A stretch of 64,000 nucleotides of DNA from a bacterium. Lineage in GTDB: Bacteria > Patescibacteriota > Andersenbacteria > UBA10190. The stretch's first letter is position 1. Each line of letters starts with the position of its first letter. Under the pieces are notes generated by a model. That model made no database searches and was not told the origin of the DNA. It saw nothing but the letters and a program-made list of their open reading frames with translations. Shown here piece by piece: positions 496-11,254 of this stretch. Position numbers and translations under genes: made by a program. The stretch covers positions 1,319-65,318 of the forward strand of contig JAUYKA010000017.1 of NCBI GenBank assembly GCA_030698495.1. Direction: 5' to 3'.

Positions 496-711
496 AAATT
501 TTTGGCGGGTGGCGCTCGTAGGCGCCCAACCATACCCATTTGCTTTGGGGGCCGTCTCAAGACTTGCCGGCCCGGTCCCCGCCTAATTTCGCCGCAGCGA
601 AAATTTGGCGGGGCGGCAAGGCTTGAGTCGAGCGCCGCCCGCCGCTGGGGCGGGCAAGTGTGCCGCCCGAAGTAAATGGGTATGGTTGGGACTCACCCGC
701 CAGAAATTTTT
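496..711 (+). repeat. Family-1 structured element, copy 1 (candidate structured ncRNA). Core 526-689, extra outer pairing 496-512 with 694-711
   Basis: Conserved core CCGTCT / P2 CTCAAGACTTGCCG pairs CGGCAAGGCTTGAG / P3 CCCCGCC pairs GGCGGGG with an apical hairpin / AGTCGAGCGCC / P4 GCCCGCC-GCTG-GGCGGGC / AAGTGTG. Outer stem CCAACCATACCCATTT pairs AAATGGGTATGGTTGG. Confidence 0.7.
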
Positions 712-717
712 ATCACT

Positions 718-1317
718 TTATTCGCCTCCCTCAATCGGGTACGGCTTCTCCACCCACATCAAAAAATGAATATGCCCTTTACTCACCACTACCTTCCCGC
801 CCTCATCAGAAAAAACTTTTTCCAGTACTGGACGATCTACCCGACTGGCCGCCCGCCACAGCCGCTTAAGCGGTCCCACTACATATTTTTGATTATCCCC
901 GGTTACGCCAATCAAACCACCCGGCCTCACTACCCTTAACATTTCCCGTATCGCCCGCGGTACGTCATCTACATAATGCAAAACATGCGCCGCGATAACT
1001 ATATCAAAAGACGCTCGGTCAAACGGCAGCTGCTTTATATCCGCCTCTCTCACCTTCAGCCTCTGTCCGTAATCACTGCGCAAATCTTCAAACGATGTTG
1101 TCGCTCGCGCATCGGCATCAACCGCCGTCAGCTCCACTTGCGGATAGGCTTCTAAAATACGGCGCGTCGTATAACCTCGTCCCGCTCCCACTTCCAGCAC
1201 TTCCCCCCGAAACGGACTGGGGCAACGCTTCAAAAAAACAGACATATAGCGCCGCGCGTGCCACCGATGCATCCAGGTGCTATGCCACCATCTTTCAAAA
1301 ACAGTTAATTGACTCAT
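718..1317 (-). CDS. Class I SAM-dependent methyltransferase
   Basis: VLEVGAGRGY glycine-rich SAM motif; DIVIAAHVLHYV and VRPGGLIG post-motifs. Confidence 0.75.
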   Translation of the reverse strand: MSQLTVFERWWHSTWMHRWHARRYMSVFLKRCPSPFRGEVLEVGAGRGYTTRRILEAYPQVELTAVDADARATTSFEDLRSDYGQRLKVREADIKQLPFDRASFDIVIAAHVLHYVDDVPRAIREMLRVVRPGGLIGVTGDNQKYVVGPLKRLWRAASRVDRPVLEKVFSDEGGKVVVSKGHIHFLMWVEKPYPIEGGE

Positions 1318-1469
1318 GCCCTAACAATACCACACGCCATACAGCTAAAACCACAATCTTAGAAAAAATCCTTAACTGAACCCGAATAACAAACAAGATA
1401 AAATAACAAAGAAACCCTTCGGCCAAGAGACTCAAGACCAAAGAAGTTCCTTTTATTCAATTGTACTAA

Positions 1470-1700
1470 CTACATCGACGGACTACCGACAGTCTGTTTA
1501 TCCCCGGCAAACATTACCAAGGCCACTATCACCGACAAAACACCAACCACAATTTGGATCCAGGGTGTTCCGCCCGTCAAGTTAGCCAAGCCCGTATAAA
1601 CAGCCGGAATTAGATGGACTAATCCACCTACCAGAAGTAAAACAGCCGCCCATAATTGCAAACTTTTGCTTTTTGCCATCTCGCTGCTCACCTCCTTCAC
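1470..1700 (-). CDS. Small membrane protein (2 TM), hypothetical
   Basis: 76 aa ORF with two hydrophobic helices. Confidence 0.4.
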   Translation of the reverse strand: MKEVSSEMAKSKSLQLWAAVLLLVGGLVHLIPAVYTGLANLTGGTPWIQIVVGVLSVIVALVMFAGDKQTVGSPSM

Positions 1701-1911
1701 ACTCTTTTATAGTCAAGTTACCTCTTTATTATAGTACACTCCTACCTAAAAAGAAACGCAGGTATTACCACTTACATAATAAACGGCTCAAGCGTACGCT
1801 TGAGCCGTTTATCTTTACCCTTTTTAACCCCGCAACTGCGTTGGGCGCTCATGCTCGCGCATACCGTGAGCCGAAGTTTAGGAATCTAGTGTATTTAGGA
1901 AGATTTGGCTG

Positions 1912-2075
1912 GCAGGTGATGCTCGCGGCTCCTGTGCATGAGCGACCGTCTCAAGGCTTGCCGGCCAGGTCTCCGCTCGCAAGCGGAGCGGCAAGCCCTT
2001 GAGTCGAGCGCCGCCCGCCGCTGGGGCGGGCAAGTGTGTCGCTCATGTATAGGTGCCGCGAAAAGCATCACCTGC
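1912..2075 (+). repeat. Family-1 structured element, copy 2, 55 nt downstream of the nrdJ stop
   Basis: Same core. Outer stem GCAGGTGATGCT...TGCATGAGCGAC pairs GTCGCTCATGTA...AGCATCACCTGC, with two G-T wobbles readable only on the + strand. Confidence 0.7.
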
Positions 2076-2129
2076 TGGAGCAAAAACACGTCAATAGATT
2101 GCCCGGTCAAGCCGGGCAATGACATTTTA

Positions 2130-10333: not shown

Positions 10334-10371
10334 AAAACCCAGTATATCCGCATATAAACAATAACAGCAAA

Positions 10372-10662
10372 TTATTCAACGGTCGCAAAAATACTCTTCG
10401 GATTACGCGGCAACTCCTGTGTCGGAAATGCCGGCACTTGCGCCTCAATATCCGAACGCGCACCCGCTACTCCCGGCACCGGCGATACCGATGGCTGGGG
10501 ACTCACAACCAAAAGCCTTTGCGCCGTTTCAACTGCCAAACTTCGCAAACCCTTCACCAAATCGAAATCCATTAAGGCTATCCCGGTCACTACCGCCGAT
10601 ATCAAAAAAAGGATTACCAACAAACCTCTGCTTGTCCGCCACTCGATCATATTTATATCCAA
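10372..10662 (-). CDS. Hypothetical membrane-anchored protein
   Basis: 96 aa ORF with one TM segment. Confidence 0.35.
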   Translation of the reverse strand: MDINMIEWRTSRGLLVILFLISAVVTGIALMDFDLVKGLRSLAVETAQRLLVVSPQPSVSPVPGVAGARSDIEAQVPAFPTQELPRNPKSIFATVE

Positions 10663-10818
10663 ACAATGAATTAACCATTACCTATACCATTAACTACAAT
10701 ATACGTCAAATGAAATTAAGAACATAACATTAAATCCCGCTGGCTAAAATAAATCTATGAGTGTATAATTTATAAAACGATTAGCTTATACACCACTATC
10801 TTCAAGGAGGTGATTTCC

Positions 10819-10971
10819 GTGAACGACGACACCATGAACCCAACCGAAGAGCCAATGACACCGGAAACTCCAATGGCTCCGGAAACACCTGCTGAAGCCA
10901 TGCCAGAAGCTCCGGCAGAACCCATGACACCGGAAACTCCGGACGAAGAAGGAGAAACCCCGACTGCGTAA
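10819..10971 (+). CDS. Small acidic Pro/Thr/Glu/Met-repeat protein (GTG start), hypothetical
   Basis: Strong SD AAGGAGGTGA 5 nt before the GTG; about 50 aa with PMTPETP-like repeats; followed by a textbook intrinsic terminator. Confidence 0.45.
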   Translation: MNDDTMNPTEEPMTPETPMAPETPAEAMPEAPAEPMTPETPDEEGETPTA

Positions 10972-10986
10972 TTGATTCTTCTGTAG

Positions 10987-11024
10987 AAAAAAATTACCCC
11001 GCATAATGCGGGGTAATTTTTTAT
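10987..11024 (+). terminator. Rho-independent terminator (bidirectional-capable)
   Basis: ATTACCCCGC-ATAA-TGCGGGGTAAT perfect 10-bp stem followed by TTTTTTAT and preceded by an A-run. Confidence 0.75.
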
Positions 11025-11086
11025 CCGCCTCCTCTCCTCCCCCAACATTAACGGTGTAGAAACATTTATACACACAATCACCGCGA

Positions 11087-11254
11087 CTGCGAGCACGGTA
11101 TCTGCTCTTGCCGGCCGTCTGAAAGACTGCCGGCATGGTCCCCGCCTATTTTTTGCGAAGCAAAAATATTGGCGGGGCGGCAGGCTTTCAGTCGACGCCG
11201 CCCGCCCGCTGGGGCGGGCAAGTGTGCCGCCAAGAGCAGATACCGTGCTCGCAG
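11087..11254 (+). repeat. Family-1 structured element, copy 4, 67 nt downstream of the YgjP-like gene stop
   Basis: Perfect 24-bp outer stem CTGCGAGCACGGTATCTGCTCTTG pairs CAAGAGCAGATACCGTGCTCGCAG. P2 is CTGAAAGACTGCCG pairing CGGCAGGCTTTCAG. The P3 apical hairpin resembles copy 1. Confidence 0.7.

Follow-up and report, generated by a model that had tools for sequence, protein, structure and literature searches.

A structured, lineage-restricted element repeated in four gene spacers of an Andersenbacteria genome

The window analyzed here, a 64 kb stretch of an Andersenbacteria genome, carries four copies of a 165-215 nt element, all on the + strand. Each copy is antisense to its surroundings and occupies the spacer that separates the stop codon of a − strand housekeeping gene from a terminator-like hairpin downstream of that gene. 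The neighboring genes encode a methyltransferase, a DUF308 protein, ribonucleotide reductase, glycoside hydrolases, a sigma factor, EF-P and YgjP. The features are as follows, with energies of the minimum free energy (MFE) folds and scores of a covariance model (CM) built from the four copies.

385..420, − strand: intrinsic terminator of the methyltransferase gene, a stem followed by TTTTTTT on the − strand
496..711, + strand: copy 1; fold -142.6 kcal/mol, z = -11.25; CM 124.9 bits; outer shell 504-524/697-711, inner P1 525-551/663-690, three-way-junction core 552-662; an extra small hairpin at about 512-526 inside the outer shell
1779..1812, no strand assigned: terminator hairpin downstream (− strand) of the ribonucleotide reductase gene and copy 2
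1908..2079, + strand: copy 2; core 1946-2038; fold -126.5 kcal/mol, z = -11.35; CM 121.1 bits
2097..2124, + strand: covarying hairpin GATT-GCCCGG-TCAA-GCCGGGC-AATGACA, 18 nt 3′ of copy 2
8377..8413, no strand assigned: 17-bp hairpin downstream (− strand) of the sigma-factor gene and copy 3, with a T-run on the + strand
8466..8632, + strand: copy 3; core 8499-8593; fold -123.2 kcal/mol, z = -10.46; CM 128.4 bits; outer stem GGCGGGCG paired with CGCUCGCC, P4 CCCCGUC/GACGGGG
8650..8677, + strand: hairpin GATT-CCCCGA-TCAA-GTCGGGG-AACGACA, 18 nt 3′ of copy 3
10988..11022, no strand assigned: bidirectional terminator common to the YgjP-like gene (−) and a small convergent ORF at 10810-10971 (+)
11087..11254, + strand: copy 4; core 11115-11226; fold -123.9 kcal/mol, z = -11.85; CM 116.1 bits; P1 of 29 nt, 97% complementary, detected also as inverted repeat I4

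Copy 1 lies between the terminator at 385-420 and the methyltransferase stop codon (718-720), and copy 4 between the terminator at 10988-11022 and the YgjP stop codon at 11321. The hairpins at 2097-2124 and 8650-8677 are just past the stop codons of the − strand ribonucleotide reductase and sigma-factor genes, respectively, and the hairpin at 8377-8413 immediately precedes the promoter of the next gene. The terminator scan itself flagged only 385-420 (− strand) and 8377-8413 (+ strand).

The conserved core of approximately 95-110 nt, CCGTCT...AAGTGTG, was found at all four places where the initial annotation had put the element. Its outer boundaries agreed with ours for copies 1 and 4, and had to be moved to 1908-2079 and 8466-8632 for copies 2 and 3 according to the fold. 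The 26-nt pattern CCGTCT-N8-GCCGGC-NN-GGTC, which has 16 fixed bases, matched the window exactly four times, against 0.01 matches expected by chance. The covariance model, a check that had been proposed beforehand, recovered only these four copies (116.1-128.4 bits) from the 64 kb window, with no fifth. The copies are clustered, with four within 11 kb and none in the next 63 kb.

The folded three-way junction is the same in every copy, at an MFE of -123 to -143 kcal/mol and z-scores of -10.5 to -11.9, and none of 200 shuffled sequences matched the native stability of any copy. The junction is closed by a long stem, P1, of 25-45 bp. P2 is a 19-bp arm whose base, CGUCU paired with AGUCG, is invariant and contains a conserved U·U mismatch. 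Between P2 and P3 there is a 7-nt bulge, GCNNGGU, of invariant length. The tip of P3 is variable and bears an apical hairpin in copies 1 and 4 and none in copies 2 and 3, as had been noticed from the sequence beforehand. P4 begins with a base of two G·U pairs (GCGC with GUGU), which are kept in copies 1-3, and ends in a GCUG(G) loop. Only the 7-nt bulge, one A at the junction and the hairpin loops are unpaired. The shared blocks that the initial annotation took for single-stranded are mostly paired, CGUCU/AGUCG being the base of P2 and GCGC/GUGU that of P4. Alignment bore out, on the other hand, that the P1 arms of copies 1 and 2 are unrelated and those of copies 3 and 4 homologous; the arms of copy 1, of copy 2 and of copies 3/4 are mutually unrelated in sequence, and an outer stem GGCGGGYG/CRCYCGCC is common to copies 1 and 3 only. 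The conserved letters of the element are those of the asymmetric bulge, the mismatch and the loops, and the neighboring helices covary.

Both-sided changes were present in 11 of the 42 consensus pairs, and none of 500 shuffles reached this number (mean 5.5 ± 1.4). When the pair registers were slid by 1-3 columns, only 0-3 double changes were left. The 11 changes are spread over P1 (5), P2 (3), P3 (2) and P4 (1), in accordance with the earlier observation of covariation in all four helices. Together with z-scores of about -11, this result indicates a folded nucleic acid under structural selection and no chance repeat. Since only four sequences from one species are available, covariation cannot tell selection at the RNA level from correction of hairpins at the DNA level, and the only evidence that separates the two is the asymmetry of G·U pairs described below.

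The + strand folded better than the − strand by 15.6, 16.5, 15.6 and 2.1 kcal/mol for copies 1 to 4, respectively, and the mismatches in the P1 arms comprised eight of the G·U type and none of the A·C type. The + strand is C-rich (GC skew -0.27), and if the skew is due to deamination, as is usually assumed, neutral decay should leave A·C rather than G·U mismatches. As a comparison, 11 other hairpins and terminators of the window were tested; five of them (I1, I3, I6, I13 and the terminator at 385-420, T385) clearly favored the − strand, only one (e5) clearly favored the + strand, and the remainder differed little between strands. These data support the + strand as the strand under selection.

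We then considered the distribution of the element. In related Andersenbacteria genera (72-75% identity of the sigma factor), the same spacers are short and without the element, and have a simple terminator 25-70 nt past the stop codon. No homologue was found in 139 kb of relatives' DNA outside the source species, blastn gave no match in phage and plasmid collections, and neither half of the core matched anything in viral contigs. The 26-nt pattern had 120 chance matches among genome contigs, in high-GC genomes, none of which was accompanied by the downstream blocks. A 22-base pattern gave 33 metagenome loci, all of them by chance (covariance model scores of 20.6 bits or less), including one (L153) that on inspection was not homologous. 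The element is known from one species in four copies and is lineage-restricted. A search of the literature on RNA motifs in Patescibacteria, Parcubacteria or Andersenbacteria gave nothing relevant.

It does not encode a protein. The frames shift between copies by 1-nt indels and are without start codons or ribosome-binding sites. Of the spurious ORFs across the element only one, in copy 4, is present in the protein collection, and a concatenated six-frame query had no matches there, probably owing to saturation of the candidate selection. A two-sequence profile of one open frame found no homologue among 1.84 billion representative proteins, returning just two unrelated tandem-repeat proteins.

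Known RNA classes were inspected with Rfam 15, which gave no match at gathering threshold over the whole window, in agreement with the initial annotation, which had not recognized the element as any common class. Relaxed filters at E <= 10 on the stretch 400-2200, which contains copies 1 and 2, gave no genuine family match either; the sole match to a copy, that of mir-1420 to copy 1, is spurious, due to the long stem only, with 27 bits against a gathering score of 70. HDV-like, twister, hammerhead, pistol and hatchet ribozymes are rejected by the absence of an Rfam match, and none of 5S, SRP, 6S, Y RNA, tmRNA and RNase P reached its gathering threshold. A retron msr/msd is excluded, as the neighboring genes include no reverse transcriptase. 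An integron attC site has conserved outer core sites (RYYYAAC...GTTRRRY) around a variable centre, the reverse of the conserved centre and variable arms found here; no GTTRRRY ends were seen, and the context is that of housekeeping genes. An intrinsic terminator does not fit a branched structure of 165-215 nt, and the simple hairpins lie beyond each copy. Insertion of the core into an existing terminator hairpin would suit only copy 1, where A/T runs flank the outer stem, and not copies 2-4. The P1 arms of copies 4 and 1, taken as guide or target sequences, had no match in viral contigs, nor did P1 arms have a significant match elsewhere in the window, and for this reason the idea of P1 as a guide is unsupported.

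The groupings of the copies by their parts conflict with each other. P1 and the bulge unite copies 3 and 4, the apical hairpin of P3 unites copies 1 and 4, P4 unites copies 1, 2 and 4, and a C/U pair in P3 unites copies 2 and 3. In copies 1 and 2 the 3′ half of the core is identical and the P1 arms are unrelated. This comparison shows the copies to be mosaics of one another, produced by recombination.

Copy 1 is in addition nested in the ends of a separate structured element located at 43935-44066; its shell (504-524/697-711) is homologous to the 5′ and 3′ ends of that element. The latter favors the + strand, is antisense to its neighbors and is conserved, with nine compensatory pairs, in a relative from another lineage, and it provides a precedent in the same genome for a structured RNA of the + strand.

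Short hairpins accompany the other copies. Those at 2097-2124 and 8650-8677 differ by compensatory changes, and a decayed version of the same hairpin follows copy 4 at about 11276-11300. The hairpin at 2097-2124 belongs both to an extended repeat unit and to a small REP-like family, GAT(T)-stem-loop-stem-AYGAC, with the loop TCAAG in three of five sites. Three of the sites (2097, 8650 and 51125) are on the + strand and two (51085 and 40371) on the − strand, 51085/51125 forming one inverted pair. The 165-215 nt element does not itself qualify as a REP.

As for expression, a consensus scan found no conserved or convincing sigma-70-type promoter upstream of any copy, and the upstream flanks could not be aligned; protein genes of the same genome have near-consensus extended -10 boxes. 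By eye, weak -10-like boxes were seen 5 nt before copy 1 (TAAAAT) and before copy 3 (AATACT). Downstream of copies 1-3 the + strand has terminator-like features with poor U tracts: a U-rich stretch comes after the hairpin 3′ of copy 2, a weaker one after that of copy 3, and one more past copy 1's outer stem. In their + orientation the copies run head-on against replication and every adjacent gene, which counts against reading them as sRNAs.

Taken together, the element is real, uncatalogued, lineage-restricted, structured and selected on the + strand. The initial annotation had called it a novel structured ncRNA family; the structure and the novelty with respect to Rfam hold, and a family of independently transcribed genes, for which a shared promoter was not found, is not established. 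We consider a family of small + strand RNAs that spread locally within this lineage the most likely explanation, with a probability of roughly 40%. The family would have arisen inside this Andersenbacteria lineage and then spread, in a manner we can only infer, into four stop-codon-to-hairpin spacers within 11 kb. Its unit would be expressed as a small, very stable RNA, antisense to the genes around it. A platform for protein binding or tertiary contacts may be formed by the bulge, the mismatch and the loops, all of them invariant, with P1 as no more than a duplex for closure or processing, free of sequence constraint. Later the cores would have exchanged sequence by recombination or gene conversion and the P1 arms drifted apart, which would explain the relation between copies 1 and 2.

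The main rival is a palindromic DNA repeat, non-autonomous and mobile or spread by recombination, of the broad MITE/REPIN/BIME/ERIC class, tolerated between stop codons and terminators; we regard this as a real possibility. The fold would then be needed in single-stranded DNA, for instance by an HUH/Y1-type transposase that recognizes one strand as its substrate, or would be kept by templated correction of quasi-palindromes. Antisense positions in 3′ spacers, absence from relatives, mosaicism, clustering and breaks in assemblies are properties of an interspersed, possibly mobile repeat. The element occupies four unrelated spacers and is missing from the same spacers in relatives, and four copies in 11 kb are what local hopping would give. 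The nested modules, with copy 1 inside the shell of another element and REP-like hairpins beside copies 2 and 3, point in the same direction, as do the inverted repeats and the 26-nt direct repeat that flank the element at 43935-44066. So do the missing promoter and the fact that short-read assemblies of the Andersenbacteria lineage break at every copy. G·T wobbles are tolerated in DNA hairpins too.

Several observations disagree with such a repeat. The classical features of a MITE are absent: terminal inverted repeats are not kept between copies, as the initial annotation had suggested, and no direct repeats that could be target-site duplications flank copies 2-4, while those flanking copy 1, AAATTTTT, are nearly palindromic and belong to the stem. 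Conservation is lowest at the termini and highest at the centre, opposite to what a MITE or REPIN shows. A Pfam scan of 20 ORFs of the window, which was not exhaustive, revealed no transposase, RAYT or integrase, and the copies are old and diverged, not recent. The folded strand is, by GC skew, the leading-strand template, whereas IS200/IS605-type elements use the exposed lagging-strand template.

The element might instead act in cis on the − strand mRNAs, its reverse complement serving in the 3′ UTR of the upstream gene as a large stabilizing hairpin, an RNase III site or an insulator. Protection from 3′ exonucleases, RNase III sites and insulation of adjacent units are roles proposed for REP, BIME and ERIC. 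Since all four copies are between a − strand stop codon and a terminator-like hairpin, they should be co-transcribed with the − strand genes, and the reverse complement is probably transcribed because these mRNAs must cross the element to reach the downstream hairpins. Its folds are still very stable (-108 to -127 kcal/mol). However, each wobble that is G·U on the + strand becomes A·C on the mRNA strand, the base of P4 is unable to pair there, and the other strand-biased hairpins (I1, I3, I6, I13 and T385) favor the − strand whereas these elements and e5 favor the + strand, making this explanation improbable.

The repeat might also carry a catalytic RNA such as a small self-cleaving ribozyme, in the way that hammerhead, twister or HDV-like ribozymes are found in multi-copy elements. 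The compact junction, the invariant letters of bulge, mismatch and loops, the freely covarying helices and the several copies would suit this, as would GCCGGCAUGGUC in copies 3 and 4, which we take to be the same 12 nt as in the HDV ribozyme of the genomic strand (in copy 4 the likeness extends to GCCGGCAUGGUCCC). This explanation appears highly improbable, as no Rfam ribozyme matched copies 1 and 2 even at E <= 10 with relaxed filters, no pseudoknot partner of the bulge covarying with its NN positions was seen by eye, and the topology is a plain three-way junction with no double pseudoknot.

To our knowledge, almost no ncRNAs or repeat families have been described in Patescibacteria (CPR), which have very small genomes. 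The element would be either a new small-RNA or RNP component of these poorly understood episymbionts, or a type of repeat, outside the MITE/REP scheme, whose centre is conserved and whose arms are free. A bolder form of the small RNA family, which we consider doubtful, is a new RNA class of Patescibacteria in which a three-way-junction domain, protein-binding or catalytic, is a movable module with variable duplex arms that was copied into 3′ spacers and into another RNA gene. If confined to one species and untranscribed, the element would be a curiosity only. Its practical effect is on short-read assemblies of the lineage, which it interrupts.

Comparison with known systems gives partial likenesses. 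The phi29-type pRNA, which is an analogy only, is an RNA of approximately 120-170 nt in which the three-way junction is exceptionally stable and the 5′/3′ helix long, and whose sequence drifts freely while the structure stays; in contrast, the present element is found in a chromosomal housekeeping context in four copies, and no complementarity of interlocking loops was seen. With Rfam-type orphan ncRNA motifs and bacterial Y RNAs it shares conserved letters at junction, bulge and loops, covarying helices, a long 5′/3′ closing stem and several clustered paralogues. It differs from them in having no Rfam 15 match, no nearby Ro/Rsr gene and no identified promoter, and in not being conserved at orthologous sites in related genera. 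MITEs, such as the Correia elements of Neisseria, and REPINs are likewise short, non-coding, multi-copy, hairpin-forming, lineage-specific, intergenic and assembly-breaking; unlike them, the element is without conserved terminal inverted repeats, a target-site duplication or a visible autonomous partner, and its conserved part is internal and asymmetric. ERIC/IRU and BIME of enterobacteria are also imperfect palindromes of 100-200 nt in transcribed spacers downstream of genes, with modular mosaic copies, optional internal insertions, short REP-like hairpins nearby and no adjacent transposase. There is no sequence similarity to them, and the Andersenbacteria element is distinguished by its conserved asymmetric centre with free arms, by wobbles confined to the strand antisense to the host mRNA, and by its four clustered copies in one species.

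The initial annotation had claimed four copies of a repeated element, and all four proved real: each lies on the + strand and carries the core CCGTCT...AAGTGTG, and a 26-nt pattern for the 5′ half of the core matched exactly these four places (0.01 expected by chance). When each full element was folded separately, one common architecture was obtained, with a long closing stem (P1) and a three-way-junction core whose arms are P2, P3 and P4.

Copies of the element, with core, fold, the − strand gene whose stop codon lies just before the copy, and the terminator-like hairpin farther along the − strand
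496-711, +, copy 1: core 552-662; -142.6 kcal/mol, z = -11.3, 0/200 shuffles as stable; methyltransferase, stop 718; hairpin 385-420, T7 on the − strand
1908-2079, +, copy 2: core 1946-2038; -126.5 kcal/mol, z = -11.4, 0/200 shuffles as stable; ribonucleotide reductase (RNR), stop 2130; hairpin 1779-1812
8466-8632, +, copy 3: core 8499-8593; -123.2 kcal/mol, z = -10.5, 0/200 shuffles as stable; sigma factor, stop 8686; hairpin 8377-8413, T-run on the + strand
11087-11254, +, copy 4: core 11115-11226; -123.9 kcal/mol, z = -11.9, 0/200 shuffles as stable; YgjP-like protein, stop 11321; hairpin 10988-11022, bidirectional

In the consensus fold of the four copies, 11 of 42 pairs showed pair-keeping changes on both sides, compared with 5.5 ± 1.4 double-changed pairs after column shuffling (0/500 shuffles reached 11) and 0-3 when the 3′ partners were slid by 1-3 columns. 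Double changes were found in every helix, in agreement with the covariation first reported for all four, and the optional hairpin that caps P3 was likewise seen in copies 1 and 4 but not in copies 2 and 3. A covariance model built from the four copies (R1), run over the whole window with filters off, retrieved only these copies at 116-128 bits; the runners-up were their reverse complements, and all else scored 12.7 bits or less.

The conserved blocks initially described as single-stranded are mostly paired in the fold. The base of P2 is formed by CGUCU and AGUCG, with an invariant U·U mismatch inside the pairing, and the base of P4 by GCGC and GUGU, where two of the pairs are G·U. The tight junction leaves a single A unpaired. 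The conserved features that are genuinely unpaired are a 7-nt bulge, GCNNGGU, which separates P2 from P3, and the P4 loop, GCUG(G). P1 spans 25-45 bp, and homology is recognizable across all copies only in its innermost ~9 bp; farther out, copies 3 and 4 are mutually homologous and copies 1 and 2 resemble no other. A 27-nt segment 68 nt upstream of copy 2 (1842-1868) has 70% identity to the 5′ P1 arm of that copy; it may reflect an earlier rearrangement or be what is left of a lost copy.

The main new evidence of this analysis is strand asymmetry. The + strand fold was more stable than the − strand fold by 15.6, 16.5, 15.6 and 2.1 kcal/mol in copies 1, 2, 3 and 4. Among 11 other hairpins and terminators of the window, I1, I3, I6, I13 and T385 clearly favored the − strand, with differences of up to 7.8 kcal/mol, another five were near-neutral, and only the element with outer stem 43877-44095 clearly favored the + strand. 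When the 5′ arm of P1 was compared with the reverse complement of the 3′ arm, 8 of the mismatches read as G·U on the + strand, none did so on the − strand, and 5 were of other kinds. In P1, RNAfold placed 10 G·U pairs and no 1×1 loop of the A·C type, and a further two G·U pairs, at the P4 base, are conserved in copies 1-3. GC skew was uniformly negative across the window (-0.16 to -0.33 in 2-kb windows) whichever strand carries the genes, and therefore reflects the replication strand rather than the coding strand, with the + strand as lagging-strand sequence; the − (leading) strand carries most genes. The skew is unusually strong and is kept where genes switch to the + strand. Under the usual deamination model of GC skew, mutation pressure on the C-rich + strand would favor G-to-A changes, which create A·C. 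The excess of G·U despite this pressure argues for a selected + strand fold, as RNA or single-stranded DNA. It counts against a palindrome of double-stranded DNA alone, and equally against a role in the − strand mRNA.

No match to the window was found in Rfam 15 at gathering thresholds; at E ≤ 10 with relaxed filters, copies 1 and 2 gave only a miRNA model on the long stem of copy 1. No tRNA or tmRNA was found in the window, and blastn against phage and plasmid collections gave no match to the element. R1 matched nothing in 139 kb of relatives' loci, either with default filters or with filters off (the latter on the Andersenbacteria loci L157, L159 and L162), including three more loci around the ATP synthase operon. 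The searches made found no homologues outside the species, and the family consists of four sequences. The results firmly support an uncatalogued, lineage-restricted structured element, with selection acting on its + strand fold.

The source is a Candidatus Andersenbacteria (Patescibacteria/CPR) MAG, and the same proteins were found in GCA_034372665.1 and in Logan assemblies of SRR13727534 and SRR26726065. The genes are those of an ordinary chromosomal region: the ATP synthase operon and genes for ribonucleotide reductase, sigma-70, EF-P, glycoside hydrolases and a YgjP-like protein. Because every copy lies between a − strand stop codon and the hairpin beyond it, the element is antisense to an mRNA obliged to read through it. 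The closest relatives available (72-75% sigma-factor identity) keep the gene order YgjP, small ORF, EF-P, sigma, GH1, ..., RNR, but their YgjP stop and the convergent small-ORF stop are 62-85 nt apart with only a bidirectional terminator, compared with 349 nt here, and a simple terminator lies 25-70 nt past their RNR and sigma stops. The four copies are thus lineage-specific additions. The small ORF itself (10810-10971, +), convergent with the YgjP-like gene, encodes 53 aa rich in Pro/Glu/Thr and has a strong ribosome-binding site with an TGTATAAT box; in relatives, ORFs of 45-48 aa are called in the corresponding position and orientation (L157 8160-8306, L159 8446-8583).

Every copy is a break point of short-read assemblies in several samples, and the element is a systematic assembly breakpoint. 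Six NCBI MAG or Logan contigs (L121, L122, L123, L165, L172, L173) end inside or at the margin of the four copies, all of which are affected. Two NCBI contigs meet precisely at the 5′ boundary of copy 3, for which population heterogeneity could also be a source.

We consider a + strand small RNA family the most likely reading, with a probability of about 0.4. Such a family would have spread locally and been homogenized by gene conversion, and the conserved bulge, mismatch and loops would offer a putative protein-binding or tertiary platform. The main competitor, somewhat less likely, is a mobile palindromic DNA repeat, non-autonomous and working through single-stranded DNA, which the insertion pattern and the clustering favor: all four copies fall within 11 kb, and the next 63 kb contain no other. 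The sequence adjoining the window, 10 kb on the right and 1.3 kb on the left, likewise has no further copy. Absence of a promoter also favors the mobile repeat: the upstream flanks of the copies share no alignable sequence, the consensus scan found no promoter in them, and only weak -10-like boxes are seen by eye, while nearby protein genes have near-perfect extended -10 boxes. So does mosaicism. Copies 3 and 4 agree in P1 and in the bulge dinucleotide, copies 1 and 4 in having the apical hairpin of P3, copies 1, 2 and 4 in P4, and copies 2 and 3 in a C/U pair of P3. In copies 1 and 2 the 3′ half of the core (47 nt) is identical, but their P1 arms are unrelated. These groupings point to recombination or gene conversion among copies. 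Against a mobile repeat, the element lacks conserved ends, no target duplications surround the copies, no mobile-element or partner gene was present among 20 window ORFs scanned, and it is the template of the leading strand that folds. Action in cis within − strand 3′ UTRs is improbable, being at odds with the wobble asymmetry, and a ribozyme, having no positive support, is very improbable.

The small RNA reading can be compared with an unannotated companion element at 43935-44066 (~132 nt, outer stem 43877-44095), which forms a rod fold (z -7.8) favoring the + strand by 7-9 kcal/mol. Its homologue in the related Andersenbacteria MAG GCA_040900375.1 (L157 3904-4039, − strand of the locus) shows 9 pairs changed on both sides and conserved termini GGCGGGUGGCRCGGU...GACAGGACCCGCC, and both are antisense to their neighbors. 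A model of the two sequences gave 142-147 bits for its own members and matched nothing else, and neither matched Rfam. The pair shows that conserved, putative + strand RNAs of antisense orientation exist in the lineage; it could represent either a new family or a universal RNA, SRP- or 6S-like, in diverged form. The outer shell of copy 1, GGCGGGTGGCGCTCGTAGGCGCC ... GGGACTCACCCGCC, is homologous to both ends of the companion element, which suggests that copy 1 may be a chimera of a companion-type RNA and the three-way-junction module. In the window, the companion is bracketed by inverted repeats of 16-29 nt (e.g. 43877-43905 / 44067-44095) and, outside these, by a 26-nt direct repeat, CCCGTCCGCYCCCC(CC)TAGATCGCGT, at 43830-43855 / 44099-44122, so that the whole resembles an insertion flanked by att-like repeats or by a long target duplication.

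The spacers of this genome often contain long inverted repeats. Several intergenic ones are A/T-rich, with arms of 20-57 nt and short repeated words (22014-22145, 37855-37971, 24306-24387, 23621-23694, 16562-16668), and in most the − (gene) strand folds better. Copies 2 and 3 also share ~45 extra nt on their 3′ side, ending in a small covarying hairpin that is present in decayed form after copy 4. This hairpin belongs to a REP-like family with three more members in the window.

REP-like hairpins of the window
2097-2124, +, beside copy 2: GATT-GCCCGG-TCAA-GCCGGGC-AATGACA
8650-8677, +, beside copy 3: GATT-CCCCGA-TCAA-GTCGGGG-AACGACA
51125-51148, +, REP-like hairpin
51085-51109, −, REP-like hairpin
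40371-40396, −, REP-like hairpin

The GAT(T)-stem-loop-stem-AYGAC flanks are conserved, the stems covary, and the loop is TCAAG in 3/5. The inverted pair 51085/51125 lies inside 24-nt inverted repeats (51055-51175), an arrangement resembling a REPIN.
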